Shown here piece by piece: positions 1,188 through 39,260 of a stretch of DNA of 46,501 nucleotides. Within the stretch, counting starts at the first letter, position 1. Each line of letters begins with the position of its first letter. The translations under genes and the position numbers were made by a program. Below the pieces are notes generated by a model. That model saw only the letters and a program-made list of their open reading frames with translations. It had not been told where the DNA came from and did no database searches. This DNA comes from a virus (taxonomy: Duplodnaviria; Caudoviricetes), in the IMG/VR virus record IMGVR_UViG_3300030397_000347, positions 1 to 46,501 of that record. One strand, written 5' to 3'.

Positions 1188-1189
1188 CT

Positions 1190-1454: not shown

Positions 1455-1464
1455 TACAAAAGAA

Positions 1465-5464: not shown

Positions 5465-5468
5465 GTGC

Positions 5469-5496
5469 TTGACACAGTCTAACTGAACGTTAGATT
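5469..5496 (+). promoter_or_regulatory. Sigma70-like promoter upstream of capsid gene
   Basis: TTGACA-16 nt-TAGATT in the intergenic gap. Confidence 0.6.
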
Positions 5497-5616
5497 ACGA
5501 GAATTAGAGGGGTTTGGCCCCGTTCTGTTGGTTTCGCCAACTGTTTGTGTATCCGTTTACGGGCACCAGTTGGCGTCATGCCTAGGTTGCCCACATTTGA
5601 CATGGGAAACCGAAAC

Positions 5617-7101: not shown

Positions 7102-7143
7102 GTCTAGCCTTTTTTCGATAACCCAAAAACGGGAACCATAACA

Positions 7144-7605: not shown

Positions 7606-7624
7606 TGGGTGTTTGTTCTCTCGG

Positions 7625-7666
7625 CCCTATCCCGGTTGGTTCACGGTCTACCGGGGTAGGGTTTTA
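7625..7666 (+). terminator. Intrinsic terminator
   Basis: CCCTATCCCGGT...ACCGGGGTAGGG followed by TTTTA. Confidence 0.7.
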
Positions 7667-7685
7667 TTCCTTGAAAGGGCATGAC

Positions 7686-7877
7686 ATGGAAATCAAAGGA
7701 CTAAACGGTAGACTTCTTGACCCTGACGAAATGGTGATTGTTAGGGATCGACACACAGGCAGACCAGTTACGAAAAAAATATCCGACCTAAAAGCCGATG
7801 AGGTAGCCGAAAATGAATCAGCCGAACCTGCTACTGAAACGGACGATGGAACCGGACCTGACCAAGATATCATTTGA
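7686..7877 (+). CDS. Small acidic hypothetical protein
   Basis: MEIKGLNG start after GAAAGG; the track's upstream extension runs through the terminator. Confidence 0.6.
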   Translation: MEIKGLNGRLLDPDEMVIVRDRHTGRPVTKKISDLKADEVAENESAEPATETDDGTGPDQDII

Positions 7878-8391
7878 CCATGTACGACAAGCAATCAATG
7901 ATATAGGCGATTGCGACGGGCAAAGGGCACTGCATCTAACAACGCTGATCGAAGCAGCACACGCTTACCTAGAAGCCCACACGAAACGGTCAATTCTAAC
8001 TCAAGCTTGGGAACTAACGATAACTGCACCGTCCGAAACGGTGCAGCTACCCCGTGGACCTGTAACCGAAGTGACCCATGTAGAGCACGCAACCGGGAAC
8101 GGTGAGTGTTGGCAAAAATTGCCGTATTCAGATTGGGAATATTCGGAAGGTTGCTTGTGGCTTCGCGGGGATGCTACATACCCATGCGGTGCAAAACCAC
8201 GATTGCGTGTTTTCTATGTTGCTGGTGCAGCTGAGCTAGAGCGGATGGAATTTCTAGCATTATCAATGTTGGTAGGTCATTGGGATTACAACCGCATTGC
8301 CACCAGTGACATTAAACAGCATACAGTGCCGTTAGGGTTTGAAGGTGTTGTCAGTATTCTGAGAAACAGGTATCTACATAGTGCGGTATAA
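7813..8391 (+). CDS. Head-tail connector (HK97 gp6 / SPP1 gp15-like)
   Basis: LIEAAHAYLEAHTKRSILTQAW, LPRGPV, MLVGHWDYNR, VPLG. Confidence 0.88.
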   Translation: MNQPNLLLKRTMEPDLTKISFDHVRQAINDIGDCDGQRALHLTTLIEAAHAYLEAHTKRSILTQAWELTITAPSETVQLPRGPVTEVTHVEHATGNGECWQKLPYSDWEYSEGCLWLRGDATYPCGAKPRLRVFYVAGAAELERMEFLALSMLVGHWDYNRIATSDIKQHTVPLGFEGVVSILRNRYLHSAV

Positions 8392-8722
8392 ACTAACCCA
8401 CCCAAACAAAATGCGGCACACTGTGACCTACCAGCGAAACAAAGCCGCAGGGCTTGATGGTTACGGTCAACCAAATGAGGATTGGCAATCTATCGTTAAA
8501 GCTAGAGCCAGAATCCAAACGCTGACAGGTGCAGAAATTGAAACCGCAAATAAGCACCACGCAGAAGCCACACATGTGATGACGCACAGATTCACAAGCA
8601 AGATTAGTGTGCGTGACCGAATAAATTTTTCAGGTAGATTATTTATGGTGCTGCATATAGATAACTATGAGCAGTTGAACCAAGAGCAACGTGTGTTGTG
8701 TGTTGAACAGGTGAAAACATGA
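8381..8722 (+). CDS. Head closure protein (SPP1 gp16-like)
   Basis: MRHTVTYQ, DGYGQ..W, ARIQ...G.E, DRINFSGRLF, LCVE. Confidence 0.88.
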   Translation: MRYKLTHPNKMRHTVTYQRNKAAGLDGYGQPNEDWQSIVKARARIQTLTGAEIETANKHHAEATHVMTHRFTSKISVRDRINFSGRLFMVLHIDNYEQLNQEQRVLCVEQVKT

Positions 8723-16440: not shown

Positions 16441-16809
16441 GTGGACATCGACTATCACATTTACATGAACGCAAGCACAGTGATTCTAGGTGCATGCGGT
16501 TTTCTGTACACACTATACGCCTCTTATCAGGCATCAAAACTATGTGGTACAGGAAAAGCTTTTTCGTTAATGTGCTTAGCCAACGCAGCTGCATTACTCG
16601 CGACAACAGGTTTTGCATACGCTACTTTCAGGGATGATTTTGATTTTGTAGGGGCTTTTGCAAACGCAAAACGATTGTTGCAATTCAGTTCAATCACATT
16701 CTGCACATGGTTGGTGCTGAGAAGAATTGAACGGAATGAGCGGCTAACGACTGAGGCTTATGCGAAAATAGAGGGTGTTTTAAATGAGCAGCAACGGGAG
16801 TCGTTTTGA
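16441..16809 (+). CDS. Membrane protein, about 3 TM helices (holin-like position)
   Basis: Three hydrophobic segments and a charged C-terminus; first gene after the fibre cluster. Confidence 0.6.
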   Translation: MDIDYHIYMNASTVILGACGFLYTLYASYQASKLCGTGKAFSLMCLANAAALLATTGFAYATFRDDFDFVGAFANAKRLLQFSSITFCTWLVLRRIERNERLTTEAYAKIEGVLNEQQRESF

Positions 16810-17437
16810 ATGGGTTGCAGGATGGAAAACGATAGGCGTTGCAGAAATCGGACTAGATGGAAAAATCAAAAGGGCTAGCAGGACTTTTGCCCAGATCCTT
16901 GGATATGATGTGATCAATTTGGTGGGCATGTCGATAGAAGAATTAATACCAAAAGAGGACCGACACCTAGCGAAAAGACGCATAGATGCATTGCAAAACG
17001 GAGAAGTAGAAGAAACAATCGCTAACCATCGATACGTTACAGCAAGCGGTGAAGAAACTTGGTGCTCAATTGAAAAAAAAATAATCAATGAAAAAGGCGA
17101 GGATGCTGTAATTCATGCACTAGTGTTTCCTTTAGATAAAAACGCACACCGTGTTGAAAGACTAGAACAGACACTACAGGAAGTGCTGAAAATTGCAGGT
17201 GATTTGAGAGGCCAAACCGGAGGTACAACTGTGAATGTGAATTCAGATAACGACCACATAGGCGGGGATCAGATCACAAGTGGGGGGCAGAAAAATAATA
17301 CAACGAATAATCAAGCATGGCTGATTGCGGTCGTTGTTTTGGCAATGGCAGCTGTTGTGCTTGGGGTAGCAGGTGTGGGGATACAAAGCGGTTGGTTTTC
17401 AACACACCCCACACCGTCAACACCAACACCACCTTGA
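16784..17437 (+). CDS. PAS-domain protein with C-terminal TM helix
   Basis: IGVAEIGLDGKIKRASRTFAQILGY....LVGMSIEELIPKEDR...RYVTASGEETW matches the PAS S-box pattern; TM WLIAVVVLAMAAVVLGVAGV. Confidence 0.85.
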   Translation: MSSNGSRFEWVAGWKTIGVAEIGLDGKIKRASRTFAQILGYDVINLVGMSIEELIPKEDRHLAKRRIDALQNGEVEETIANHRYVTASGEETWCSIEKKIINEKGEDAVIHALVFPLDKNAHRVERLEQTLQEVLKIAGDLRGQTGGTTVNVNSDNDHIGGDQITSGGQKNNTTNNQAWLIAVVVLAMAAVVLGVAGVGIQSGWFSTHPTPSTPTPP

Positions 17438-19847: not shown

Positions 19848-19922
19848 GAAGGTAGATAGCAGCTGACTGATGACGAACAACCTGGTTAAAAGGTTTGAAA
19901 CTGCTATCTACCTAGTTTAACA

Positions 19923-20024
19923 GGTGTTGGGCAGCATGGCATGATTGCACCAAGCACGGGAATCGAACCCTCACACACAGCACGAACAGCTTCACCAAGA
20001 CTGCCGCACATTCTGCCCAACACC
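19923..20024 (-). ncRNA. tRNA-like structured element (not a canonical tRNA)
   Basis: GGGTTCGATTCCC T-arm and a D-loop-like GCAGTCTTGGTGAAGC on the minus strand, enclosed by a 12-bp inverted repeat. Confidence 0.3.
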
Positions 20025-20032
20025 AAGGTGAA

Positions 20033-20590
20033 TTAAGTAACATAATGACCCTGTTGAAATAGCTGAACTAGCTCACTAGTGTCAACATCTGTGTGGTCGC
20101 CAGTGGCGAACAGCTGCACAATGTCTGATGAATCAAACACACCGTCAACGTTGTAATCACCATTCATGCCCACAAAAGCTTCTGCGGCAACACTGCGGTC
20201 AACATCGAACATGTTAGCCCGTAATGGAATGACGCCTTCATCACGGCAGAAGAAATTGCCTTCTGAGTACATCCCAGCATCACGGTGCCCAACGTCGTTA
20301 GATGGGTTGGCAGCCCTGCGTAAGTTGCTGTTTGCTTGCCAAGCCATCAACATATCTGTGCTGTCAGTGTCCCCATCTAAGTCAAGGTCACCCCGCTTAC
20401 TGCCGATCGATTCAAGCACCGTGTTGACATCCAACAAACCTACCCAACCATCACCATCAGCATCAAAAGAAAAATCCTCAGACCGGTAGGCAACTTGCAG
20501 GCAAAGTTGATCAACGTCAATTAGATCAACCACCCCATCACTATTGAAATCAAAACCAGCTGCTAGTCTTCGCGATTCTAGACTTTCCAT
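20033..20590 (-). CDS. Planctomycete-type extracellular protein with dockerin/EF-hand-like repeats
   Basis: MESLESRRLAA (LEPRxLL-like motif), DFNSDGVVDLID, DADGDGWVGLLD, GDLDLDGDTDSTD, GDYNVDGVFDSSDIVQLF; start at 20590. Confidence 0.8.
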   Translation of the reverse strand: MESLESRRLAAGFDFNSDGVVDLIDVDQLCLQVAYRSEDFSFDADGDGWVGLLDVNTVLESIGSKRGDLDLDGDTDSTDMLMAWQANSNLRRAANPSNDVGHRDAGMYSEGNFFCRDEGVIPLRANMFDVDRSVAAEAFVGMNGDYNVDGVFDSSDIVQLFATGDHTDVDTSELVQLFQQGHYVT

Positions 20591-20828
20591 GAAACAACCC
20601 CACTTCAATTCTGAGCCCCACTGCTTTTGCCATTGCAAATAGCGTATCAAGGCTGACCCCACGGTTACCAGATACAGCACCTGACCAGTTAGACCGATTG
20701 GGTTCTGCATCACTGTTTAGATGGAATAGGGTGCGTCGATGTGCCTCGAATTGGGATATTTCGATTTGCACCCTACGTGTTTCGATTTTGTCTAATAGTT
20801 TCTGCATGCCTGCCATATTAGCAGGCAT
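20550..20828 (-). CDS. XRE/Cro-like HTH regulator
   Basis: NRSNWSGAVSGNRGVSLDTLFAMAKAVGLRIEV resembles the recognition helix and C-terminal part of XRE HTH domains. Confidence 0.6.
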   Translation of the reverse strand: MPANMAGMQKLLDKIETRRVQIEISQFEAHRRTLFHLNSDAEPNRSNWSGAVSGNRGVSLDTLFAMAKAVGLRIEVGLFHGKSRIAKTSSWF

Positions 20829-21597
20829 GCGTTATCAAGGCAAGACTACGACGCAAGACCACAGTGGACATCAAGCACCCCGTGCAGGGCACTTGACGTT
20901 TTGATGATGATCTACGACGGCCCTTGTAAACTTCTGTGAATGCGTTTTGCAGAGTCCACACGTTGAAGTCATCAAACTGAAATTCTACTTCATTTCCGTC
21001 AGGGTCTGTTGCCATTTCCGTACCATGCCACAAGCCCAACACATTGGGCACGCGGGTGGGTGTGACGGCTCTAGCCAACAAAGCACGGCACACCAAGTCA
21101 TGGGCTTGCCGATCGTCAATTTCGGTGTTCTTGTAGCATGCAATTCTTTCATCCATGTCTTCAGACGTTTTGCGAAGATCACCAATTGCACGTGCAACAA
21201 CGTGGTCAAGATCGCGGATAATGTGCCGAGTGTGCCGACGTGCAACTTGGACACTGTCACCGTGAAAAGCCAAGTTGTCACAGACAAAAACCCGGCTACC
21301 AATGCACAACCCAGCGGCGAAACTGTTGTCATGGGTGTTGCGTAGGCCAATGACTGTATCACGTTCTTTGCTTTTGCCTTCTAGCGTAGCAACACCAAAA
21401 TAGCGTTGACCATCACGCCCTAGCCCGTGGTCAAGGCTTTTGATGTTGTAACCATTTTCGGTTAGCTGACCTGTGACCGATTCAACGAAGTCAGCATGTG
21501 GTACAGGCACAAAGCTTTCAGTAGCTTTAGGCGTCTTGACCTTACGAAGGGCATCAAGTGTGATTTCTTCGGCACCGCAGTGAAGCATGAGTGACAT
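20818..21597 (-). CDS. DUF932-family protein, C-terminus probably frameshifted
   Basis: MLHCG, PVPH, RYFG, GLRNTHD, GSRVFVCDNLAF, RRHT, W.L.NAFTE. Confidence 0.8.
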   Translation of the reverse strand: MSLMLHCGAEEITLDALRKVKTPKATESFVPVPHADFVESVTGQLTENGYNIKSLDHGLGRDGQRYFGVATLEGKSKERDTVIGLRNTHDNSFAAGLCIGSRVFVCDNLAFHGDSVQVARRHTRHIIRDLDHVVARAIGDLRKTSEDMDERIACYKNTEIDDRQAHDLVCRALLARAVTPTRVPNVLGLWHGTEMATDPDGNEVEFQFDDFNVWTLQNAFTEVYKGRRRSSSKRQVPCTGCLMSTVVLRRSLALITHAC

Positions 21598-21642
21598 AGT
21601 GTTTTTCCTTTTGAGTTGAAGTTGTGTTCCGTGTATGTGTGT

Positions 21643-21671
21643 ATGTTATCGGCAATTGATAACTAGGTCAA
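21643..21671 (-). promoter_or_regulatory. Sigma70-like promoter for the DUF932 operon
   Basis: TTGACC-17 nt-TAACAT on the minus strand; AAGGA RBS before the ATG. Confidence 0.55.
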
Positions 21672-21691
21672 CACCCTACGTGGAATTTTTT

Positions 21692-21928
21692 TCAGATTAC
21701 ATCTTTTGGCCAAACCCACCGTGGGTAGATAGGCCCATTCTTGCCATCGTCGTCAAAACGCACATCAACAAAAGCAGCCTCTTCATCTGACTGCCTATGG
21801 ACTCTTACAACTGTTGCAACACCTTCTAGCCGCCCAGTGGCAGACTGGTAAATGTTGACTTTATCCCAAACAGATACAAATGTTTTCGTTTTCATCGCTG
21901 CCTTCCATTTTTCATGAAATGTCATCAT
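21692..21928 (-). CDS. Hypothetical protein (small beta-barrel-like)
   Basis: ORF track; coupled to upstream ORF. Confidence 0.6.
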   Translation of the reverse strand: MMTFHEKWKAAMKTKTFVSVWDKVNIYQSATGRLEGVATVVRVHRQSDEEAAFVDVRFDDDGKNGPIYPRWVWPKDVI

Positions 21929-22275
21929 TCACCCTCTATTTCTTCCCATGGCCCTGAATGCCCATGTTCGGTAGCTAGTTCTAATGCTTCCTGAACACTG
22001 TAACGGCGTACATTACGGATGTGACCAATAAGGTAATACTGATCGCGAGGCATAAATAGTTCATCCGAAGCATAGTCAAAACAAGTAATATCCGCACCAA
22101 GCCACCCGCACCCTTGCACTTCAAGCCATCCGTGTTGAATCCAAACGTTAAGGTTTGCTGACCAACAAGTGCCGTGGCAAACTTTAATATTGCCCCCAGG
22201 AATGCCACGCCCTAACAATGTGCCTATGTTCATGAAGGCACCGTGAAAGCACATACCACCTGTATCTTTGTTCAC
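21925..22275 (-). CDS. Hypothetical protein, possible transglutaminase-like Cys-His-Asp triad
   Basis: GGMCF, CHG, QHGWLEV, CFD, C-terminal GPW; GAAAGG upstream. Confidence 0.55.
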   Translation of the reverse strand: MNKDTGGMCFHGAFMNIGTLLGRGIPGGNIKVCHGTCWSANLNVWIQHGWLEVQGCGWLGADITCFDYASDELFMPRDQYYLIGHIRNVRRYSVQEALELATEHGHSGPWEEIEGE

Positions 22276-22339
22276 TTTAATGCCCTTTCGTTTTAGAGTA
22301 GATTGAGATTAATTCACATGAGGTGAGTTTTTCCTACAG

Positions 22340-22374
22340 CCCCCATCACTTGTCGTGATGGGGGTTTTTCTTTT
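22340..22374 (+). terminator. Intrinsic terminator
   Basis: CCCCCATCAC-TTGTC-GTGATGGGGG then TTTTTCTTTT. Confidence 0.7.
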
Positions 22375-22485
22375 GTGTGCCTACAACTTTTCAGCACAGA
22401 TATGTACTGATCATTTTGTGTTGCCCTTGTGTTGAAGTAACGTTCAGTTGATTGACGGTAACCATTAAACGGCAAGGGCAATGAC

Positions 22486-22785
22486 ATGTGCGAAACACGC
22501 GGCGGATACCGACCGAATAGTGGACGAAAAGCGGGCTACATCAGTGAAAAGCGGAAATATTGTTGTCCTACAAAAGTTGCCAAAGTGCCGAAGTGCTGGA
22601 ATGTAATGGATGTGCATGAATCACTTGAGATGATTCAAAGTCTGATGGAAGACGCAAGGCAGCAAATTGAAGATAGTCGCGAAGCTTCCGCTAAAAACGG
22701 CAAAGGGTTGAATAGCCGCCTACACGCATTGGATAGTTTCCTTCAAGAACTAGAAAATAATCTGCCGAATAAATGTGAGGGTTGA
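22486..22785 (+). CDS. Putative DNA-binding protein
   Basis: N-terminal RGGYRPNSGRK (GGxRxGAGR-like) motif. Confidence 0.55.
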   Translation: MCETRGGYRPNSGRKAGYISEKRKYCCPTKVAKVPKCWNVMDVHESLEMIQSLMEDARQQIEDSREASAKNGKGLNSRLHALDSFLQELENNLPNKCEG

Positions 22786-22809
22786 CACAGCCTGATAACA
22801 TGTTAAATT
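22782..22809 (+). promoter_or_regulatory. Sigma70-like promoter for the csrA/replication operon
   Basis: TTGACA-16 nt-TAAATT; shares TTGACACAG and GTTA.ATT with the capsid promoter. Confidence 0.6.
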
Positions 22810-22941
22810 CCCATACAGTTGAAACGTGGGTCACACAGTTGCTGCTGAACGATGGGATGAGTTGAACGGAGTACAGCAACAGTAGACGGCGGGCACTGGA
22901 CTGCCACCGTCTATATTCATTTTTTAAACAAGGATGAATCT

Positions 22942-23256
22942 ATGGCAGGGCTTTGCCTATCTAGACGCATGAACCAATCTGTAATGATTGGTGATTCCAT
23001 CAAAATCAAAATCATCGGCATCAATAATGGTGTTGTCAGATTGCATTTTGACGCACCCACGGACATATCTATTCACCGCGAAGAAGTTTTTGAAAGGATC
23101 AAACAGGATGGCGAAACACGAAATCGAAATAGGCCCGAAGTTGGAATCGGTGATACGATCGATCTTCGGGTGCCTAACAGAGGAGACGGAAGCACCCAAG
23201 AAAGCACCGGCGAAGAAACGAACATCACGGAAGAAAAAGACGGTAACACAGGATGA
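22942..23256 (+). CDS. csrA: Carbon storage regulator CsrA/RsmA homologue
   Basis: LCLSRRMNQSVMIGDSIKIKIIGINNGVVRLHFDAPTDISIHREEVFERI matches the CsrA consensus including HREE. Confidence 0.92.
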   Translation: MAGLCLSRRMNQSVMIGDSIKIKIIGINNGVVRLHFDAPTDISIHREEVFERIKQDGETRNRNRPEVGIGDTIDLRVPNRGDGSTQESTGEETNITEEKDGNTG

Positions 23257-23452
23257 GGTACGGGCACTTGCCAATGAAGCAGGTGACGCCCACGGTGTTG
23301 CAGCAATGCGGCAAGCTGTCAAGGATGCAGGGTTGCCTGCGATGAAAGACATGGATGATGATCAGTTAGCGAAAGCAGCAGAAGTGCTTCAGAAGCTGAT
23401 TGATAACCCACCGAAGGAAGAAACCCAAGAACCGGACGATGACGTTTTATGA
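23108..23452 (+). CDS. Hypothetical protein typical of the slot upstream of DUF2800
   Basis: MAKHEIEIG start; APKKAPAKK linker; VTQDEVRAL helical domain. Confidence 0.65.
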   Translation: MAKHEIEIGPKLESVIRSIFGCLTEETEAPKKAPAKKRTSRKKKTVTQDEVRALANEAGDAHGVAAMRQAVKDAGLPAMKDMDDDQLAKAAEVLQKLIDNPPKEETQEPDDDVL

Positions 23453-24642
23453 GTACGCACAGCCCTATCAGCCCGAGTGCATCTACTAGGTGGCGAATCT
23501 GCGGCAGGTCAATTGAGTTGTCCGCAGAATGCAAAACCTACGGCAGCAATGCCTACAGCAATGAAGGTGATGTGGGGCATGAGTATGGGGCACAGTGGCT
23601 AACTGATGGTGTGCAACCACCAACCCCCACATTGTGCAAGGGCTGTAGAAAAGCGTGTACCACACCACCCTGCCAGTGGTGTGGGTGCACCATTGTTGAA
23701 CCTGACGAAATGTTAGCCAGCGTGGTCAGTGAGTATGTCAAACCGATTCAGAAAATCTGTTTGGTTAATCAAATTTTTCCACAGGTTGAATTGCGTTTAG
23801 AAAGTGAGGAAATTAAAAACCTTGGCGGCACGATGGATGCCTTGATGCTGTATTGGACGTTAGACGATGGCGACATTGCACATGTGGCTGACTTCAAGAA
23901 TGGCACAGGCATTCGGGTGGAACGCGAAGACAATTGGCAGGGCATGCTATACCTATTGTTGGTGCGTGAACATTTTGGCAGGCATGACACCTACCGCACT
24001 ACAATCGCACAACCTAGATATGATGATTGGGATTGGGAATCAGCAACCTATGAGTATACAGATGCTGACCTAGACCACTTCACGAAAGCGGTGCTTGAGG
24101 CAGTAGCCAAAAATGAATTGGTTGTTGGTTCCCATTGTGGGCTATGCCCTGCGGCGATTTTGGGCAAGTGTGATGAGTTTAAACAGGGCATGCAAAAGTT
24201 AACTTCAACTGAGTTAACAGACCATGTTATCCTTCAAGAAAACGAGCATCTAGCGTGGGTGCTTGACAACGCAGACGCAATCAGTGCCTGCCTAAAGCGT
24301 TGTTACGATGAGGCACTATGCCGCACACGTAGCGGTCACCAGATACCCGGATATAAAGCAGTTCAGGGCTACGGGCACCGCACATGGGTGGGCGATGATG
24401 AGACCACAGAAAGGAAACTCAGACAGCGTGGATTGAAAGTGGCTGAGTGTTATACGAAAAAACTAATCAGCCCTGCACAAGCTGAAAAGCTTGGCAAAAA
24501 AGGAATCACCACAGGCATCGTGCAAAAGCCTGCACGCGGCATCAAGTTAGTGCCTGAAAGTGCCAAGGGTGAAGCGTTGACTTTCGAAACGGTGGATCAG
24601 GCTTTTGATTCTGCCCTAGAAGAATCGGATGATATCCTATGA
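23449..24642 (+). CDS. DUF2800 / Cas4-like PD-(D/E)XK nuclease
   Basis: HSPISPSAS.RW..C, GGTMD, VADFKNGTG, QPR, GSHCGLCPA, GYKAVQG. Confidence 0.88.
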   Translation: MSTHSPISPSASTRWRICGRSIELSAECKTYGSNAYSNEGDVGHEYGAQWLTDGVQPPTPTLCKGCRKACTTPPCQWCGCTIVEPDEMLASVVSEYVKPIQKICLVNQIFPQVELRLESEEIKNLGGTMDALMLYWTLDDGDIAHVADFKNGTGIRVEREDNWQGMLYLLLVREHFGRHDTYRTTIAQPRYDDWDWESATYEYTDADLDHFTKAVLEAVAKNELVVGSHCGLCPAAILGKCDEFKQGMQKLTSTELTDHVILQENEHLAWVLDNADAISACLKRCYDEALCRTRSGHQIPGYKAVQGYGHRTWVGDDETTERKLRQRGLKVAECYTKKLISPAQAEKLGKKGITTGIVQKPARGIKLVPESAKGEALTFETVDQAFDSALEESDDIL

Positions 24643-25298
24643 GTAGTATTGTGATTGACGGACATCAGGCATCAGGCGTTACACCTGAAGGCATTTTTTC
24701 CTACCCAAGCGTGTTCTCACGCACCAAATTCAAACTTGATGCAGACAGACACCCTGATGGGCTGTACCGTTTGACTCTTGTTTTTCCTGACAAATCCGTA
24801 CTTCAGGAAATGCGAACCGTGGCTAAAAAACTCATAGTCGCGAAGTGGCCAGATCCTACCAAACGTGAAGAGGCACTAGCCAATCCAAAATTCAACAACC
24901 CTTTCCGCAGCTGTAAAGAGAAGCTGAGCAAGAAAGGTTTTGAACACCCTAATGGCATGTTTATCGCGTTCCGTTCTGACCGTGAATTGGACGTACGCAA
25001 AGCGGTTAGAGACACAAGCAAACCCGTAGGACCAAACGGCAAACATCCTTGGATGGAAGCGACCACTGAGGACATCATGGCAGGCTATTGGGGTCGCGTG
25101 AAGTTTTCCATGTTCGCCTACACCGAAGGCAATGGTGGTGTTTCCCTGTGGATGAACAGTGTCATGATGACAAAGGTGGATGAAGTCATTGCAGGTGGCA
25201 AGTCAAACGCTGATGAAGACTTTGACGACATCGAAGAATCAGAAGCACTGACTGCTGACATCGGTGATGATAGTGATTGGGATAGTGAACCGTTTTAG
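24639..25298 (+). CDS. ssDNA-binding protein (DUF2815/Enc34, T7 gp2.5-like)
   Basis: FSYPSVF, IMAGYWGRV, GGVSLWMNSV, acidic tail ending in F. Confidence 0.88.
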   Translation: MSSIVIDGHQASGVTPEGIFSYPSVFSRTKFKLDADRHPDGLYRLTLVFPDKSVLQEMRTVAKKLIVAKWPDPTKREEALANPKFNNPFRSCKEKLSKKGFEHPNGMFIAFRSDRELDVRKAVRDTSKPVGPNGKHPWMEATTEDIMAGYWGRVKFSMFAYTEGNGGVSLWMNSVMMTKVDEVIAGGKSNADEDFDDIEESEALTADIGDDSDWDSEPF

Positions 25299-25330
25299 TC
25301 TAACCCCCCACGTCTAATCAACGGTTCACA

Positions 25331-25369
25331 AGCTGTGCCCCTTCCACACAGGGGTACAGCTTTCTTTTT
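25331..25369 (+). terminator. Intrinsic terminator after SSB
   Basis: AGCTGTGCCCCT...AGGGGTACAGCT then TTCTTTTT. Confidence 0.75.
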
Positions 25370-25384
25370 ATGAGGGTGTCGATA

Positions 25385-25619
25385 ATGGGTTTAAATCAAT
25401 TGTGTGCAAACATTCATCAAAGCTACTTGACCTGGTGGCCAGCAAACAAAGCTGAACGCAACAAGCCAGAACAGATAGCGTTGGTGGAAACATGAAATCC
25501 GCGAAACAAAAATGGAAGGTGATGTAGAAGCAGATGCAAGGGATGAAGGTATTAACGCATGTGCAAATCAATTGAGCAGCGTTATTGATTTATTGAGTCA
25601 GGATAATGTGAGCTTCTAG
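25385..25619 (+). pseudogene. Truncated MazG-like N-terminus joined out of frame to another gene end
   Basis: MGLNQLCANIHQSYLTWWPANKAERNKPEQIALVET* then a second frame ending at 25619. Confidence 0.4.
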
Positions 25620-25621
25620 GA

Positions 25622-27712
25622 ATGCTTAGATTTATTGACTTTGAAACCCGTGATGAAGGTGGCAGGTTGAAAGACCTAGGCACCAGCAAGTACACACAAC
25701 AGCGTGAATTCACGCTGTTGTGCTTAGCGTCGAAAGTCTACGGGAAAAAGCCCACGCTGTGGCTACCTGGTGACCCTTTCCCTGATTGGGCAATGAATCC
25801 TGACCCAAAAGAAACATGGGTTGCTCACAACGCAACGTTTGAACGTCTGGTGTGGGCTAACTACTGCGTACGCGTGTTGGGGTGGGACAGTGTGCCACTA
25901 TCGAAATGGATGTGCACAGCAGCACGGTGCAGGGCTATGGGGCTACCAGGATCACTAGAAGAATCAGCTAGAGCGTTAGGTTTGCCCACCCAAAAGGATA
26001 TGGAAGGGCATAGGCTGATGTTGAAATACACCAAACAAAGAAAGGTAACCAAAACAAACCCTGACAAGTATCATGATGACCCAACCGAACTGAAAAAAGT
26101 ATTTGATTACTGTGTTACTGATGTGGAAGTGACAGAACAGATACATGATCTAACACACGAATTGACCGATGAAGAAATGCGTGTGTGGCGTATCAATGAA
26201 ATGATCAATGACTACGGTTTTCAGATCGACATCAAAACCTGCACACGTATCTGTCAACTGATTACACGAAGTCAGGAAAGGGCACTTGATGAACTAGTCA
26301 AAATCACAGGTGGCAAAATTAAAACCAATGGGCCACAGGGTTACATTGATTATCTCGACAGGTTAGATCTACCCAACATGCAAGCACCCACCGTGGCAGA
26401 AGCATTGGAGCGTGAAGACTTAACAAAAATTGAGCGTAGGGTGTTGGAGATCAGGCAAACCCTTGCACAAACCGCAGTGAAGAAATTCAAACGATTCATC
26501 AATCGTGTTGAAGATGACGGACGTATACGCGGCACGCACATGTACCACACCGCATCTACAGGCAGATTCAGTAGTCATGGTGTGCAGACACAGAACATGA
26601 AGCGTGGGCACGCTGATGACCTGGCTATCAAAGTGTGTGCTGATGCTGTGCACATTGGCAAGACATTGGACGAAACGATTGATCTGATTGAGTGGCAGTA
26701 TGGCAACGTCACAGATGCAGTATCGAACATCGTACGGGGCATGATTGTTGCACGGGATGGCGGCTACCTGTGCCCAATGGATTTCAGCAGCATCGAAGCA
26801 CGTGTCAGTGCGTGGCTTGCTAATGAGCAGACTATGCTAGATCAATTCCGGGCAGATACTGAAGTCTATTGTATATTTGCGTCCAAGCTGTTTGATTTTG
26901 AGGTGACCAAGAAAGACAAACTTGAACGGTTCATCGGCAAGCAGTGCATCCTAGGATTGAGCTATGGTCTAGGCCATTTCATGTTCCGTGAAAACACCCT
27001 AGCTATCGCCAAGAATATGGGCATGACGGTGGATCTAAGCCCTGAATTCTGTAAAGAGGCAGTGGCCCTGTACCGTGAAGAGTATGCCATGATTCCGCAG
27101 TATTGGAATGACTTGGAAACAGCAGCGATTGAAGCGGTCAAACACCCTGGCAAGATCACAGAAGCAGGCATGATCCGTTTCGGCATGGAACGGTTCAAGG
27201 GTAACGAATGGTTACGCTGCAAACTACCCAGTGGGCGTATCATCCGCTACCCATCACCACGGGTGGTCAAGATGTGGCCCAGTTACGTGAAACGCAGTGA
27301 ACGCACAGCCGAAAACGAATGGAAGAAAAAATACACACTCACCTTTTTAGCAGTGGTCAAAGGTCAGAACAGAAGAGAAAAAATCATTAGGCTGCCTGAT
27401 GAAGAATACTTGTGGCAAAAGGATTCACCGTACTACACAGCCCACTGGCAGCGGTTAAGCACATGGGGCGGCACACTGCTTGAGAATGTCACACAGGGGC
27501 TTTCACGCGATTACCTGACACACAGCATGGATGAAGCACGCAAACAGCGATTCGCAGTTAGTTTACACGTACATGATGAGATTGTGGCGGATGTGAAGCA
27601 GGCACATGAGGTGGAAAAAGTCAGACAGGTAATGTTACGCAAACCAGAATGGGGGAAGTTATGCCCAATAGACGCAGACGGTTTTGTAACCAAAAGGTAC
27701 CGCAAAGATTGA
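25622..27712 (+). CDS. DNA polymerase family A (APSE-like) with 3'-5' exonuclease
   Basis: IDFET, AHNATFER, YCVTDV exonuclease motifs; STGRFSS, DFSSIEAR (A), R..GK..ILGLSYG (B), HVHDE (C). Confidence 0.95.
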   Translation: MLRFIDFETRDEGGRLKDLGTSKYTQQREFTLLCLASKVYGKKPTLWLPGDPFPDWAMNPDPKETWVAHNATFERLVWANYCVRVLGWDSVPLSKWMCTAARCRAMGLPGSLEESARALGLPTQKDMEGHRLMLKYTKQRKVTKTNPDKYHDDPTELKKVFDYCVTDVEVTEQIHDLTHELTDEEMRVWRINEMINDYGFQIDIKTCTRICQLITRSQERALDELVKITGGKIKTNGPQGYIDYLDRLDLPNMQAPTVAEALEREDLTKIERRVLEIRQTLAQTAVKKFKRFINRVEDDGRIRGTHMYHTASTGRFSSHGVQTQNMKRGHADDLAIKVCADAVHIGKTLDETIDLIEWQYGNVTDAVSNIVRGMIVARDGGYLCPMDFSSIEARVSAWLANEQTMLDQFRADTEVYCIFASKLFDFEVTKKDKLERFIGKQCILGLSYGLGHFMFRENTLAIAKNMGMTVDLSPEFCKEAVALYREEYAMIPQYWNDLETAAIEAVKHPGKITEAGMIRFGMERFKGNEWLRCKLPSGRIIRYPSPRVVKMWPSYVKRSERTAENEWKKKYTLTFLAVVKGQNRREKIIRLPDEEYLWQKDSPYYTAHWQRLSTWGGTLLENVTQGLSRDYLTHSMDEARKQRFAVSLHVHDEIVADVKQAHEVEKVRQVMLRKPEWGKLCPIDADGFVTKRYRKD

Positions 27713-34017: not shown

Positions 34018-34226
34018 CTATTGAAATCATAAAACGTGTCGAACCAAAGAAACCAGAAGAGAACAAAATCACATTCAAGTGTTCACACTGCAAATCTAAA
34101 CTACGTGCATCACCAAATGATGCATGCGGTCAATCTTATGACAAGCTGTCAATGATGGATTACAACGTTCATTTAGCTTTCAACTGTCCCGTATGCAAAC
34201 ACAAAACATGGGTGGTATTACCATGA
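34014..34226 (+). CDS. Small zinc-ribbon protein
   Basis: CSHC...CPVC. Confidence 0.7.
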   Translation: MTIEIIKRVEPKKPEENKITFKCSHCKSKLRASPNDACGQSYDKLSMMDYNVHLAFNCPVCKHKTWVVLP

Positions 34227-34450
34227 GCCATAGACAGATCAACCGACAACTACTTGCATTCCTAGGCGTGGAACCGAAGGGGGCAATGAAAATATCAGTC
34301 ACACTAGCGATTGACTGCTATCCCATCATTGAAGTTGAACGTAGGGGGCGTGATGTGATCTACGGAAAGGGCAGACCCCACTTCGAACGGACTAAGGAAA
34401 TCTATCAGCTTAACGAAATTGGAAACGCAGAAAGGATAACCAGCAAATGA
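34223..34450 (+). CDS. Hypothetical protein
   Basis: ATGA-coupled start MSHRQ. Confidence 0.6.
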   Translation: MSHRQINRQLLAFLGVEPKGAMKISVTLAIDCYPIIEVERRGRDVIYGKGRPHFERTKEIYQLNEIGNAERITSK

Positions 34451-34902
34451 TTGATTTCATACCCATCAAGTTTGAACCAAATGCACGCCGCAAGCACAGT
34501 AAGAAGCCTGTGATGATTCTTTGTGAAGACGATACGTGGTACCGCATTCTCACAGAAGGCATGTCTATTCAAGCTGTTAAGAAAGACGTTCTTGAACCAC
34601 TGACACCCAATTGCGTTCAGCGTAATCTTCTCATCCGTGTTGAAGGTGACGGGATGTGGCAAACTCACGCAGGTGGTGACGGGGTGTATCAAGTCAAGTT
34701 AGAGTACAACCCTGATTTAGATTGTATCTATCAGGTTGCTGACAGCTATGGTGAACTGTTTGAGGTTGCTCGGTATGTACTTAACAAAGCTATTGAAGAA
34801 TTCGAGCCCAATGTACCACCAACTGTTAGAGCCACACTAGTCAAGCGTGCTTTGACTGATCTATCAGCAGTTGCAGGAGAAATACAGAGGGATCAGGCGT
34901 AG
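34447..34902 (+). CDS. Hypothetical protein
   Basis: ORF track; ATGA-coupled. Confidence 0.65.
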   Translation: MIDFIPIKFEPNARRKHSKKPVMILCEDDTWYRILTEGMSIQAVKKDVLEPLTPNCVQRNLLIRVEGDGMWQTHAGGDGVYQVKLEYNPDLDCIYQVADSYGELFEVARYVLNKAIEEFEPNVPPTVRATLVKRALTDLSAVAGEIQRDQA

Positions 34903-34920
34903 CCACTAAATAGACAGTGA

Positions 34921-34950
34921 CCCTTACCAGGAGTCCAAAACTGGTAAGGG
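34921..34950. other. Perfect 10-bp hairpin ending the replication operon
   Basis: CCCTTACCAG-GAGTCCAAAA-CTGGTAAGGG; no U-tract. Confidence 0.55.
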
Positions 34951-35074
34951 CCACCAAGCCAGATCAGCACAGCCACCACTCTAGCACGCTCTACAGTGCA
35001 CATAAACACTATACAGGTGTTCACCACTTCTGAACGATTGTACACCTGTTTCGATCGTAACCCCCTTTATGGGG

Positions 35075-35342
35075 CCTACACGGTCAAGACCACCCATAGC
35101 CACTGTGCTGCACCAAAAGTGCAAAAACACATCGTCGGCACCGTGTAGGGGTGCTTTTTCAAGATACCCCTACACGGTACCCTACACGGTGCCATTTCAG
35201 CCTATGAATCAAGGGGTTCCAGCGTTCAAAACGTGCGAAATCGTAACACCGTGTAGGGTATAGGCCAAACATTCTAGGTGTGGTGTTTTTTATGCCCTTT
35301 TTTGCACCACACCCCTATTACCCCCTATAGACCCTACACGGT
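35075..35342. repeat. Iteron array (CCCTACACGGT x6), putative replication origin
   Basis: Forward at 35075 (10/11), 35168, 35180, 35332; reverse at 35140, 35248; non-coding, downstream of the primase-helicase. Confidence 0.8.
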
Positions 35343-35382
35343 GCACGATCTCGCCCACCCCCCGCGTAAATCACATCCCGGT

Positions 35383-35410
35383 TTGACGGTGGCAGGAACC
35401 GTGGTAGACT
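35383..35410 (+). promoter_or_regulatory. Sigma70-like promoter for the tail operon
   Basis: TTGACG-16 nt-TAGACT with extended -10 TG. Confidence 0.55.
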
Positions 35411-35470
35411 CCAATCAGTCTAGGACGAAATCACGCCGTTGGAGTGGGGGCGATATCGTCCCATCTACGA

Positions 35471-35902
35471 ATGCCAGATCTATCAGAATCGCTAAGAACG
35501 TGGCTGCTGCCCACGGTCACACCTACAGTTGATGACCGTGTTCACGTGGATCACGCACCGCAGCTAGAACAGCTACTCAAAGCAGACTGCACACCTGAAG
35601 ACATCAAGCCTTATGTGTGGGTGTCACGTGCAGGTGTAGACCGCGATGGGTGTCTAGGTGAATCTGGTACACTACCCGATAGCGAAGACTTTGACATAGA
35701 ATGCACATCACGTGATATCGCCACATCAAAAGCGTTGGCTACGCTGCTGCATGGTTTGGATTCATCCCGGTTGCAGTTTGATGGTATCTGGTGTGACGTG
35801 TTTGTGACTGATCAATCAGACGATTATCAGTCGAGAACACAAGCAGTTGAACTAGGGCTATTCGTAACCGCGTTAGCGATAACCGTTGTGAGGAATCAAT
35901 GA
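35471..35902 (+). CDS. Tail terminator/completion protein
   Basis: LRTWLL....VDDRVH...APQ...PYVWVSR...FDIEC; precedes the tail tube. Confidence 0.75.
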   Translation: MPDLSESLRTWLLPTVTPTVDDRVHVDHAPQLEQLLKADCTPEDIKPYVWVSRAGVDRDGCLGESGTLPDSEDFDIECTSRDIATSKALATLLHGLDSSRLQFDGIWCDVFVTDQSDDYQSRTQAVELGLFVTALAITVVRNQ

Positions 35903-36525
35903 GCGGAAAACAAACAGGTAATGGGATAATCATTGAAGCCCGTGAAACGGGCGTAGGCGATTATGAAGCGGTCGGTTGCATCTATGGTGTTCAACCATCC
36001 GGCATCGAGTATGACACTGTTGTTGATGAACAGTGCCTAGACGAAACAGGCACACCAGCTACAGAGCTGGGCGACCCGCAAGCTAGTGAATCCATCTTCA
36101 CCCACTCTTACTTCCCTGGCGGTTCATCAACAGAGAAACTACGTGGGTGGGCCTACAACCGCACCCTATGCGATTGGCGGATTGTTTACCCATCTAACAT
36201 CAGCTGTGCCGCAGGCGTCATTGAACAGTTCAAAGGACGCATCCGCGTATTCCAACCAGCTGAAGCAACCAAGACAGAATTCATGCGTGTGCCAGTCACC
36301 GTTTTGGTTGACGGTAACGTATCGATGCAGTGCCTTGGTCAAACCGTGGTTGATATTGCGGCAATGACTGCATTGGCAATCGGCACACTCACAACTGGCG
36401 ATCACGTACGCCTAGACAACGGTGACGTATACCGATGGGATGCAGCGGCTACATCAGGTGATGAAGAACCTGATGACAAAGCCAACCCCGGTGTCGATCC
36501 TGGTTATTGGATACTTCAACCGTAA
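35899..36525 (+). CDS. Major tail tube protein with C-terminal extra domain
   Basis: QTGNG, CLD, DWRIVYP, FKGRI, VLVDG lambda gpV-like pattern. Confidence 0.75.
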   Translation: MSGKQTGNGIIIEARETGVGDYEAVGCIYGVQPSGIEYDTVVDEQCLDETGTPATELGDPQASESIFTHSYFPGGSSTEKLRGWAYNRTLCDWRIVYPSNISCAAGVIEQFKGRIRVFQPAEATKTEFMRVPVTVLVDGNVSMQCLGQTVVDIAAMTALAIGTLTTGDHVRLDNGDVYRWDAAATSGDEEPDDKANPGVDPGYWILQP

Positions 36526-37035
36526 ATGTCTGATACCTTCAGCGTTGAACTTGATGGCGTTGACCCGTTGTTGCGAAAGCTGCAACGGGTTGAACGTCGA
36601 TCTACCCAACGTAGTATTTTGCGTAGGGCTTTCAAGTCTGCCACCGGACCTGTGAAGAAAGCAATGCGGCGAAACATCCGCAGTGCTGGTGCAGTGCGGA
36701 GTAGAGCCCTAGCTAAGTCAATTCGCGATAAGGTCAAGGTCTACAACAGCGGCATTGTTGTTGCAGTGGTTGGCCCCAACAGTAAGAAGGTTGACGGTGT
36801 TAGCCCATCACGTTACGCTCACTTAGTTGATAAAGGGGTGGCACCCCACAACTATAAGAAGAAACAGCTGACCCACGTGCAACGCTATGACGGCACGTGG
36901 TTCACGCACCGCACCCATCCGGGTAGCAAACCAAAACCATTCTTGAAACAGACTGAGCAAGCTGTACGCACAGCTGTGAAAGGTGTGTTCAAACAACGGC
37001 TAGAAATTCTAATCAATAGGGCATTAACAAAATGA
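36526..37035 (+). CDS. HK97 gp10-like neck/tail protein
   Basis: Basic; LAKSI, RYAHLVDKG, HPGSKPKPFL. Confidence 0.85.
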   Translation: MSDTFSVELDGVDPLLRKLQRVERRSTQRSILRRAFKSATGPVKKAMRRNIRSAGAVRSRALAKSIRDKVKVYNSGIVVAVVGPNSKKVDGVSPSRYAHLVDKGVAPHNYKKKQLTHVQRYDGTWFTHRTHPGSKPKPFLKQTEQAVRTAVKGVFKQRLEILINRALTK

Positions 37036-37376
37036 ACCAAGCACTAGCAAAGATGCGACTAAAAGGTGCAGTACCTGTAGAAGAGGTAACAGGCATCCCT
37101 TCAAGCTACCTATGTGCACCATCAGCCACCATGATGATGCAATTACATGAAACGCTTGAAAGCTTTGGAATTGAAGTTAAGGAAGAGGCCACACTTGAGA
37201 TGGGAAGTCTGAACGCCGCCCAGCGTACCCAGTGGGTAAAGCAAATGGCAGTTTTCATCAGTTCAATTCTGTTAGATGTAGAAGGTAACAACATGCTTTC
37301 TGTGGCAGAAGCTGAACAACTGCCACACACTGTACTTGAACAATTGATGGATAAGGCACCGCTAAAAAAAAGCTAA
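37032..37376 (+). CDS. Tail assembly chaperone (gpG-like)
   Basis: Upstream of tape measure; LLDVEGN; ends in an A8 slippery run. Confidence 0.75.
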   Translation: MNQALAKMRLKGAVPVEEVTGIPSSYLCAPSATMMMQLHETLESFGIEVKEEATLEMGSLNAAQRTQWVKQMAVFISSILLDVEGNNMLSVAEAEQLPHTVLEQLMDKAPLKKS

Positions 37377-37621
37377 ACACATACCCTGACTATGCATTCC
37401 AGCTGTGTGAACAGTTGGGGATAATCCACCCCAAATTTTTATTAGAACAGCTGACTTACGGTGAGTTCGAAGAGTGGTTCAAGTATCACTTGAAACATCA
37501 CAGCTACACCGAGTATGTAGAACTGTACGGTGGCGATGGTGACGTGATGTCAGCCGAAGAACAGTTCCATTTTTTAGAAGAACTGAATGCAAAGCGAAAG
37601 GCTGCACGCGATGGCAGTTAG
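37364..37621 (+). CDS. gpT-like -1 frameshift extension of the chaperone
   Basis: -1 frame open from A AAA AAA: KLNTYPDYAFQLCEQLGIIHPKFLLEQLTYGEFEEW. Confidence 0.75.
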   Translation, partial: KKKLNTYPDYAFQLCEQLGIIHPKFLLEQLTYGEFEEWFKYHLKHHSYTEYVELYGGDGDVMSAEEQFHFLEELNAKRKAARDGS

Positions 37622-39260
37622 AATAGGTCGGTTTAGCGTATCCATCACAGGCACCGCGATTGGTTTTGAGCGTGTGCTAAATGATGCAGGTGCAGCTGCT
37701 CAAAAATTCCAAAGACGCATTCAAGGCATTGGCACATCACTAACCGCACTAGGTGCAGGTATCTCAGCTGTTGGTGCTAGCCTAGTCGCACCGTTCGCCC
37801 TAGCTATCGACAGGGCCACAAGATTTCAGGAAGCGACAACCAGATTTGGTACCATCTTTGAAGAGTCCACAGCCGATGTGAAAGCGTGGGGCGATCAGTT
37901 CGCCACATCAGTTGGACGTTCACGTTTAGAAGTACGTTCATTCCTAGCTGACTTCCGTGGGCAGTTCGATGAATTCAACGAATCCTTTGGACGTGGTTTC
38001 GGCGATGAGGTCAGTAAAGCCCTGACACAGATTGCAATCGATCTAGCATCCATCCGTGACCTTGATGTTGGTCAAGTATTCACCAACATTCAAAGCGGCT
38101 TAGCAGGCGAATCAGAAGCACTGCGGAAGTACACAATTGATGTATCCGCAGCAACGGTCAATGCCAAACTACTTGCAGCAGCGATCGACCCCAAGCTAGC
38201 AACACAAGGCGAAAAACGACTAGCACGCTTTTCATTGATTCTAGAGCAGACCACTAAAGCACAAGGCGATGCCATCCGCACTAGTGGCGATTTCGCCAAC
38301 ACAATGCGGCGATTCCAAGCAGCAGTATCTGATGCAGCAGTGTCAATAGGTAGTCACCTGATACCTGTTCTAACACCTATCGTGCAGCGAGTAGCGGCAG
38401 TCACTAAAGCAGTTGCAGACTTCGTTGCCAACAACCGCACACTAGTGTTGTCAGTTGCAGCCATAGGCGTAGCCATCACCGCATTCGGCGGCACTGTCTT
38501 AGCAGTGGGCACAGCAATTGGCGGTTTCTCTCTGATACTTGGTGCCATCGGCACAACCGCAGCTGGAATACTAGCACCCATTGCTGCGGTCGCAGCTGCC
38601 ATTGTCGCAATTGGTGCCGCTATTGCCTTTGTCACCTTCCGATTCACCAAGTTTGGCAAGTCAATCAAAGAGGCAGTCACAGGTGCACTGCCAGAAGTTG
38701 ACACCTCACAGTTCACGAAAGAGATTGATGAAGCACTAGCACAGACCAATGCAGCCTTGGAAAAGATCGGCAAGACCAAAACAGAAATCAACCTGAACAA
38801 AGAAAAGATTGAAGAGGCAAAGGAAGCAGCGAAGCAGCTGCAAGAACAACTAGAACGTGAGGGTAAAGCCCTAACAGTTAGCCTACGCACACCCTTTGAA
38901 ACCTTTGAAGCATCCATCAAGAAAGTCAATCAACTGCTGCAAGCCAATGCCATTACGCAACAAACCGCAGAACGGCAAATTGCACGGCTACAACGTGACC
39001 TGCTTGAATCACAAGATGAAATAGAGCTGAACACAAGGCAGGCAGTGGCACAGAATATTACAGTGCGTGGTAGCCAAGCCGAAGTTTCGTTCAGGGCAAA
39101 TCAAGAGGCACGTGAAAAGAAAGCAGAACAGCAACGCGAAAAACAACTTGCACAGGAACAACGGCAGACCAGGTTGCTAACACAGGCCAACGATACCCTA
39201 AAGAAAATTTTGGATAGGACAAACACTACACCCCAATTAGCTACGGCATCTATTCGATGA
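37611..39260 (+). CDS. Tape measure protein
   Basis: Ala-rich helical; DLAS, SGLAGESEALRKY, QGDAIRTS, hydrophobic middle, LRTPFE; ATG 37611. Confidence 0.92.
   Translation: MAVRIGRFSVSITGTAIGFERVLNDAGAAAQKFQRRIQGIGTSLTALGAGISAVGASLVAPFALAIDRATRFQEATTRFGTIFEESTADVKAWGDQFATSVGRSRLEVRSFLADFRGQFDEFNESFGRGFGDEVSKALTQIAIDLASIRDLDVGQVFTNIQSGLAGESEALRKYTIDVSAATVNAKLLAAAIDPKLATQGEKRLARFSLILEQTTKAQGDAIRTSGDFANTMRRFQAAVSDAAVSIGSHLIPVLTPIVQRVAAVTKAVADFVANNRTLVLSVAAIGVAITAFGGTVLAVGTAIGGFSLILGAIGTTAAGILAPIAAVAAAIVAIGAAIAFVTFRFTKFGKSIKEAVTGALPEVDTSQFTKEIDEALAQTNAALEKIGKTKTEINLNKEKIEEAKEAAKQLQEQLEREGKALTVSLRTPFETFEASIKKVNQLLQANAITQQTAERQIARLQRDLLESQDEIELNTRQAVAQNITVRGSQAEVSFRANQEAREKKAEQQREKQLAQEQRQTRLLTQANDTLKKILDRTNTTPQLATASIR

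Follow-up and report, generated by a model that had tools for sequence, protein, structure and literature searches.

A phage csrA gene whose ribosome-binding site coincides with a CsrA-consensus site: candidate translational feedback at the head of a replication operon

The csrA gene of a tailed phage carries a CsrA-consensus site over its own Shine-Dalgarno (SD) sequence, and five further sites of this kind follow downstream, in and around the start of the next gene. This set of sites, all six of them on the sense strand, is real and well placed. Its likely function is autorepression: CsrA would exert negative feedback on its own translation at the head of an operon for a DUF2800 protein, a single-stranded DNA-binding protein (SSB) and a polymerase, a reading to which we assign a probability of about 0.5. 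An earlier note on this DNA had gone further and proposed a self-contained switch, in which the leader of csrA would end early to give a CsrB-like sponge or an attenuator; that switch is mostly unsupported. The mechanism of the feedback itself is textbook, and the unexpected part is a long overlap between csrA and the gene that follows it, here called gene 2.

The window, by which we mean the whole stretch of 46,501 nt analyzed, is a 46.5-kb virus record with a CheckV completeness of 100% that encodes terminase, portal, Clp protease, capsid and tail tube proteins. From csrA onward, the block of interest runs through gene 2, DUF2800, an Enc34-type SSB, a family A polymerase, a nuclease, an SNF2 helicase and a primase. 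Its features are as follows.

22782..22809, plus strand: predicted sigma70-type promoter with an extended -10, 10/12 to consensus plus TG, called by sequence
22838..22880, plus strand: leader hairpin 1, a predicted fold, with GGA 22855 in the apical loop and ACGGA 22866 partly paired
22882..22914, plus strand: leader hairpin 2, a terminator-like stem predicted at -17 kcal/mol
22915..22939, plus strand: hairpin 3, predicted, 10 bp (22915-24/22930-39), -5.3 kcal/mol at 37 C
22929..22936, plus strand: CAAGGAUG, a match to the CsrA consensus over the csrA SD (-13), shared in register with 14 other viral csrA genes
22942..23256, plus strand: csrA, 104 aa, a CsrA core (residues 4-55) followed by 49 aa of acidic tail, disordered by prediction
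23089..23110, plus strand: initiation region of gene 2, with SD AAGGA at 23094-98 and CAGGAUG over the AUG at 23108
23108..23256, plus strand: dual-coding overlap of the csrA tail and the start of gene 2, 149 nt, with the sites at 23226 and 23249 inside
23108..23452, plus strand: gene 2, 114 aa, ATG at 23108, a small gene ahead of DUF2800, with the sites at 23320 and 23350 outside the overlap
23449..27712, plus strand: replication module by Pfam matches (DUF2800, Enc34-type ssDNA-binding protein, family A DNA polymerase)

The 4-nt overlaps that join gene 2, DUF2800 and the SSB gene suggest that these three are co-transcribed; a gap of 323 nt lies 5' of the polymerase. Elsewhere in the window, the head genes stand separately at 445-8722 and the tail and head-tail genes at 34193-46024, 3' of the replication block; a large beta-helix protein at 43694 has a start resembling that of the beta-helix protein at 8719, and a PAS-domain protein at 16784-17437 adjoins the lysis or late region. 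Searches for close relatives with CsrA, DUF2800 or polymerase in viral contigs, with gene 2 in metagenome contigs, and with a 21-nt stretch of the window in viral contigs were negative. In the protein search, the best DUF2800 match had 33% identity and CsrA matched only an identical copy. Very near genomes may escape all of these searches.

The csrA product matches the CsrA family profile (PF02599) with an E-value of 1e-19 and 70.5 bits against a cut-off of 27. Alignments with solved structures place its L6 and R46 at the positions of E. coli L4 and R44, the residues described as critical (PMC7652899), and all the RNA-binding residues are retained. An AlphaFold model of the monomer gives the core a pLDDT of 87-94, with strands at 13-16, 20-28 and 31-37 and a helix at 47-62; the swapped strands 1 and 5 are unassigned in the monomer. 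Domain, residues and the beta-strand core followed by a helix all agree with the CsrA/RsmA family. The tail is modeled at 61-71 and is devoid of secondary structure. Its residues 63-77 (window 23128-23172) weakly match positions 8-22 of the CsrA profile (4-5 bits; 2 and 4 of 2000 shuffles do as well) and repeat the strand 2-3 motif with 22 of 45 bases identical in frame, which together suggest that the tail is a decayed internal duplication. A tandem two-domain CsrA was rejected, as the tail matches profile positions 8-22 only and does not fold in the model. Among the best protein matches (P0029-P0177), tandem two-domain CsrA is nevertheless frequent, and a few of these proteins have 3-5 repeats.

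The consensus of the promoter claimed for this gene in the earlier note is present, TTGACA-16-TAAATT with a TG extension at 22782-22809. Genome-wide, a score of 10/12 or better, with no fewer than 5/6 at -35, is reached twice, and only the match at 22782 has the TG; the other strong sigma70-type match is at 5469, just 5' of the capsid gene. Transcription would start near 22815-22817. Farther upstream, a strong plus-strand intrinsic terminator at 22338-22375 sits in the divergent gap 5' of the ORF at 22486, with no plus-strand gene ahead of it, and is possibly a small RNA. The leader stems described before (GTTGCTG 22838-44 with CAGCAAC 22874-80 and TAGACGG 22883-89 with CCGTCTA 22907-13) are present, as are the GGA motifs at 22855, 22868 and 22898, a loop CTGGAC at 22896-901 and a U6 run at 22920-25. 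Folding of the leader, one of the checks suggested in the earlier note, gave z = -2.87, with 3/200 shuffles equally good, and three hairpins are predicted back to back (22838-22880, 22882-22914 and 22915-22939). For hairpin 1, an alternative fold is predicted at 10 C and in longer context. In hairpin 2, the hexaloop CUGGAC holds the GGA at 22898, 34 nt 5' of the GGA of the SD. A contig from a second study (depth 3.3) carries T22914C, possibly an error, which turns the basal G-U pair of this hairpin into G-C.

The site CAAGGATG at 22929 lies over the csrA ribosome-binding site, as had been claimed. The motif CAAGGAUG is a CsrA motif reported as enriched in RIP-seq (bioRxiv 10.1101/2025.07.22.666180), and the site is the sole exact copy of the SELEX core ACARGGATG in the genome on either strand. 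About one such copy is expected somewhere by chance, so it is the position of the core and not its presence that counts; when two mismatches are allowed, the full 12-nt SELEX consensus shows no genome-wide enrichment (18 matches versus 14.2 expected). For comparison, we drew on two sets of viral csrA stretches, of 497 and 172 members, and took the best 80 from each; these amount to 159 loci, dereplicated to 123 (hereafter the best-match loci). Of these, 57 belong to what we term the planctomycete type, a class defined by us on a CsrA protein motif, the alignment behind which retrieves almost only Planctomycetota from genomes. Among the best-match loci, CANGGANG is present at 14 of the 55 GGA-bearing starts of planctomycete-type viral csrA genes as against 8/260 control ORF starts (p 6e-7), the controls being mechanical ORF calls with false starts included. 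Given ANGGANG at the start, the 5' C is found in 14/19 of these csrA genes versus 8/32 controls (p 0.001). This 5' C is not part of the anti-SD complement. The variable position differs between the recurrent sites (CAC, CAA, CAT), and the site label is scattered on the CsrA tree (13 changes for 15 rows against a shuffled mean of 13.6), a tree that is poorly resolved, with 2/55 branches starred.

This recurrence is confined to one class: no enrichment was seen at csrA starts of the other type among the best-match viral loci (1/55 vs 5/279), nor in 72 cellular planctomycete csrA loci (7/67 vs 6/95, p 0.39), and the site is commoner at planctomycete-type viral than at cellular csrA starts (14/55 vs 7/67, p 0.03). 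The CsrA of the window is without the class motif and sits on a long branch, so that we infer, rather than observe, that the recurrence carries over to it. One locus (L131) has AAACAAGGATGAA in common with the window, and two others (L122 and L155) have a csrA with CAAGGAGG at -13, 5' of a DUF2800-like gene. Taken together, the intact RNA-binding residues, the SELEX core over the SD and its recurrence at viral csrA starts lend indirect support to self-repression by the phage CsrA, the first part of what the earlier note had proposed.

The same sites could be used by the CsrA of the host. The host is probably a planctomycete, as suggested by weak evidence: a match to Planc_extracel (PF07595) that scored under the cut-off in a protein of the window, weak matches to this protein in 4/151 planctomycete genomes, and two genes in common with L115, a virus with a planctomycete-type csrA. 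A 351-aa protein of the window matched 0/201 genomes, and a further host check gave 0/4. Ten DUF2800 loci were found in 401 planctomycete genomes, and 0/10 had csrA in flanks of about 1.5 kb. A Dockerin/EF-hand-like protein with a weak planctomycete extracellular signature is encoded at 20033-20713 on the minus strand. Under the host-based account, the host CsrA pool reads the sites and ties csrA and the replication genes to the metabolic state of the host, while the phage CsrA acts on other RNAs or dampens host CsrA through mixed dimers. Planctomycete genomes do encode CsrA, sequence cannot tell which protein binds, and the phage tail is acidic and long (9/123 best-match viral CsrA proteins reach at least 90 aa). 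However, viral csrA starts carry the SD site more often than cellular ones do, the phage protein retains its RNA-binding residues and the host phylum is but weakly indicated, and we regard the account as decidedly improbable.

The structure around the SD raises a different possibility, one that needs no CsrA at all. In the predicted fold, the U-run arm of hairpin 3 pairs with the SD (UUUU:AGGA, fourU-like), burying it together with the site at 22929, and leaves the SD GGA with an unpaired probability of 0.01-0.03; the same U-run doubles as a candidate terminator tail. Nearest-neighbor models may overstate the stability of such hairpins. The locus might thus be governed by a fourU-type thermometer or by a fixed SD-occluding hairpin behind a leaky terminator. 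The pairing of four uridines with the AGGA of the SD is the defining feature of fourU elements (PMC4166951), and the SD is more buried here than in most viral csrA genes (0.01 vs a median of 0.47; 9/110 of the best-match loci at or below 0.1). Moreover, a hairpin of -10 kcal/mol or lower with a U-rich tail occurs just 5' of csrA in 17/121 viral loci versus 10/224 controls (p 0.003), and in 12/71 versus 5/157 where the gap is at least 60 nt, the viral loci again being drawn from the best 80 of 497 and best 80 of 172 matches. Against this, shuffles of the arm of hairpin 3 are as good in 617/5000 cases (12%), the model keeps the hairpin closed across 4 to 55 C, and the CA prefix and the downstream sites are left unexplained. 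We therefore consider control by structure very unlikely as a replacement for CsrA feedback, with which it can coexist. The recurrence of terminator-like hairpins 5' of viral csrA makes a leaky terminator or processing site in the leader plausible. Long stable hairpins with U-runs are found just before the csrA SD (10-35 nt 5') in eight unrelated phages (L006, L093, L098, L114, L125, L128, L131 and L156), and tRNA or tRNA-like genes lie 5' of csrA in L118, L125 and L133.

The further claim of the earlier note, that the leader may end early to give a CsrB-like sponge or attenuator, concerns what such a terminator might do. In its sponge form, termination at the U-run would set free a short RNA of about 110 nt; in its attenuator form, the terminator would be toggled by CsrA. 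The strong predicted promoter, the stable hairpin with its U-rich tail, the two GGA motifs predicted in loops and the recurrence of terminator-like elements 5' of viral csrA all speak for it. Yet, as a sponge, the 111-nt leader has 3 GGA motifs (P 0.11) and one ANGGA, compared with about 18 repeats in CsrB (PMC7652899), and the best site would be missing from the short RNA because it is located beyond the U-run. An Rfam search of the window gave nothing at the gathering threshold and 11 chance-level matches up to E 10, with no Csr/Rsm model among them; in 14 related loci, Rfam returned tRNAs only. As an attenuator, the leader offers no competing fold: forbidding hairpin 2 costs 17-24 kcal/mol, and hence there is no structural antiterminator, while hairpin 3 is no candidate for one, since the U-run is transcribed before its 3' arm. 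The tail after hairpin 2 begins AUUCA before reaching the U6, and the terminator went uncalled by one predictor and was called under looser rules. No leader motif in common was evident by eye among 29 other leaders. Thus, neither the sponge nor the attenuator is supported, and we judge the two together extremely unlikely; a constitutive leaky terminator in the leader is possible.

Returning to CsrA feedback, the remaining sites extend the set into gene 2. The CAGGATG sites noted before at 23104, in the start region of gene 2, and at 23249 are present, as are CAAGGATG at 23320 and CATGGATG at 23350; a sixth, CACGGAAG at 23226, was absent from the earlier note. Four of the 14 sense-strand copies of CANGGANG fall within 421 nt (scan P 0.0032), as do 6/31 copies of CA(N)GGANG in the cluster (scan P 0.0002); the looser pattern ANGGA gives a scan P of 0.20. 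When 2504 shape-matched patterns with 8-25 copies were compared, only CANGGANG had at least 4 copies in the region, and 16/2504 formed equally tight clusters anywhere in the genome. None of 2943 background windows from the 123 best-match viral loci held four CANGGANG or six CA(N)GGANG, a count that takes in both strands of these windows and so dilutes the rate. GGA as such is under-represented on both strands, at 0.64 and 0.60 of expectation. We ruled out avoidance of CsrA as the cause, the depletion being equal on both strands, which indicates a DNA-level bias. Over the whole window and on both strands, GCGC is strongly avoided (1 seen vs 95 expected), and CTC/GAG, GGA/TCC, GGCC, CCAG/CTGG and GATC are also avoided, likely reflecting restriction avoidance. 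Of the 28 sense-strand CA(N)GGANG sites listed, with the minus-strand block 19900-22330 left out, just two are within 20 nt of a start, one at csrA and one at gene 2. A late-gene regulon was accordingly rejected, no other listed site being near a start. A reading of the sites as DNA operators is also unlikely: they are asymmetric, all sense-oriented and inside genes, and they do not belong to a common repeat family.

For the downstream cluster, the evidence comes from a single genome. Among 120 other best-match viral csrA loci with full cover from -160 to +420, CANGGANG occurs 0 times in 67, once in 43, twice in 9 and three times in 1, as against four in the window; the cluster thus recurs in 0/120 and is peculiar to the window phage. 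Only one of 70 cellular csrA loci (L216) has four sites, and the gene 3' of two of them presumably encodes flagellin, a known CsrA target. Another locus, L253, has four CANGGANG in 276 nt (1317-1600) around a DUF2800-like start, with no csrA in its 4 kb.

The csrA frame runs on to 23256 and so overlaps gene 2 by 149 nt, a feature missed in the earlier note. Three of the six sites thereby fall within or border on DNA that is read in two frames; the site at 23249 contains the csrA stop codon. Third-position T is absent from the first 48 codons of gene 2 (9.2 expected, P 1e-5); this T-free run stops at the T of the csrA stop, and the next longest in 21 other genes is 26. The csrA frame stays open, given the gene 2 protein, with P 0.03. 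These two observations make it likely that the overlap is under selection in both frames. Gene 2 has no Pfam match; it has a weak homolog 5' of DUF2800 in L245, and the nearest Atlas model, a 'putative rRNA biogenesis protein rrp5', reaches a TM of 0.53, under the bar of the tool. A like acidic CsrA tail extends over the next gene from +163 in L126, where the overlapping ORF looks real; two further candidates, L149 and L113, were dismissed as their overlapping ORFs are unlike real genes. Two ACAGGATG repeats flank the overlap, one containing the start of gene 2 and the other the stop of csrA, and no joint from a deletion between them was seen in contigs. An assembly error at the csrA stop was rejected, since a contig from run X1, possibly the source sample, covers 22274-23627 with no difference. 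Its depth there is 1377, whereas the flanks reach 2000-3600; contigs have loose ends at 22089 and 22303, and a co-occurring variant may carry a different cassette at 22274-23627.

The overlap bears directly on the most mundane reading of the cluster, namely, that an ordinary AAGGA SD with a chance CA prefix is joined by downstream motifs that an acidic K/D/E-rich protein and a double reading frame happen to produce. AAGGA is the usual SD in this phage. Only 3 of the 149 overlap positions are free under both proteins, and hence the codon-preserving shuffles suggested earlier cannot judge the sites at 23226 and 23249 and, largely, 23104. Outside the overlap (64 codons), where they can, the two sites have, given the protein, a borderline P of 0.05 for CANGGANG or 0.009 for CA(N)GGATG; a synonymous test of the whole of gene 2 (P 0.001-0.002) was set aside as overstated because 48 codons are dual-coded. 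The K-D encoded at 23320 is kept in the distant homolog of L245, other viral csrA loci do not share the cluster, and the locus was chosen post hoc from about 500 viral csrA stretches. On the other hand, the background windows never reach such counts, CANGGANG ranks first among the 2504 patterns at exactly the csrA locus in a genome that avoids GGA, and the SD site recurs at viral csrA starts. We consider it doubtful that the cluster is incidental.

The feedback that we favor would operate as follows. A CsrA dimer would bind the site over its own ribosome-binding site and repress translation of csrA, with one pocket presumably on the GGA in the loop of hairpin 2 and the second pocket on the SD site 34 nt 3' of it, a spacing within the range of 10-63 nt over which CsrA bridges (PMC7652899). 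Low basal expression, with no switching involved, would be ensured by hairpin 2 together with its U-run and by the weak hairpin that pairs with the SD. Among the points against this scheme, the loop of hairpin 2 is CUGGAC and not ANGGAN, and a paired site lowers CsrA affinity (PMC7652899), so that the predicted pairing of the csrA SD site would have this effect. The earlier note had also extended repression to the next gene. The sites near the starts of csrA and gene 2 favor this and the absence of the cluster from other phages speaks against it, leaving it plausible. More tentatively, ribosomes translating the csrA tail would cross the gene 2 start and clear it of CsrA; once csrA translation is off, the SD and AUG sites of gene 2 could become occupied by CsrA, so that fewer ribosomes enter the replication genes. 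The gene 2 SD is in the loop of a 5-bp hairpin in the local fold and mostly paired in a wider one (unpaired probability 0.04-0.19). We offer such repression of gene 2, through its SD/AUG sites and the loss of ribosome traffic, as a tentative possibility. The sites from 23226 to 23350 may increase the capacity for binding, or they may simply follow from the two protein sequences. A bolder version would make the locus a self-contained translational timer, in which the shut-off of csrA halts ribosomes over the 149-nt overlap, CsrA loads the five downstream sites and the replication operon closes, with the acidic tail, as a decayed second repeat, tuning RNA affinity and the SD site recurring in planctomycete-type phages, not in their hosts; this we view as improbable.

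Phage csrA genes are common, with 497 csrA-matching stretches in IMG/VR viral records, and one survey describes their targets as untested and calls for loss-of-function tests (PMC7366521). A literature search, thin on subscription journals, returned no paper on planctomycete-phage CsrA or on autoregulation by a CsrA of any phage. The locus provides a compact test system for the targets of phage CsrA. More generally, the 14 of 55 starts suggest that self-limitation has recurred as a design. It would be fitting for a phage that has to avoid overwhelming a global regulator of its host.

Several parallels may be drawn with known systems. Among the closest are E. coli csrA autoregulation and glgC repression (PMC7652899), which share the SD site, a GGA hairpin loop 5' of it at bridging distance and, in the former, csrA as its own likely target. 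The present gene differs from them in being phage-encoded, in having its SD site in a predicted stem and an upstream loop lacking the 5' A, and in a 49-aa tail that overlaps the next gene. The Pseudomonas aeruginosa psl and E. coli ymdA leaders (PMC7652899) likewise combine an SD/anti-SD hairpin with sites for the CsrA family. In psl, however, the site is in the loop and binding stabilizes the stem, and in ymdA binding opens the stem, whereas in the phage the site is itself the SD arm. CsrA control through an overlapping upstream ORF or through start-codon sites, as proposed for gene 2, resembles E. coli idlP-iraD coupling and the start-region sites of sdiA (PMC7652899), except that, compared with idlP-iraD, csrA itself takes the place of the upstream ORF and the overlap spans 149 nt rather than a few bases. 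With the CsrB/RsmZ sponge RNAs, the locus shares CAGGAUG repeats and GGA motifs in predicted loops, but its repeats lie in coding sequence 3' of a leader that has 3 GGA and matches no Rfam model. The predicted pairing of UUUU with the SD AGGA is akin to that of fourU thermometers (PMC4166951), from which hairpin 3 differs in showing no predicted melting below 55 C, in not preceding a heat-shock or virulence gene and in not being significant against shuffles. Finally, the phage-borne csrA/rsmM alleles (PMC7366521; PHROG 9500), found in 30/2517 phage genomes in that survey, also have variable C-terminal extensions; the available part of the survey names no phage RNA target, and the locus described here supplies candidates.
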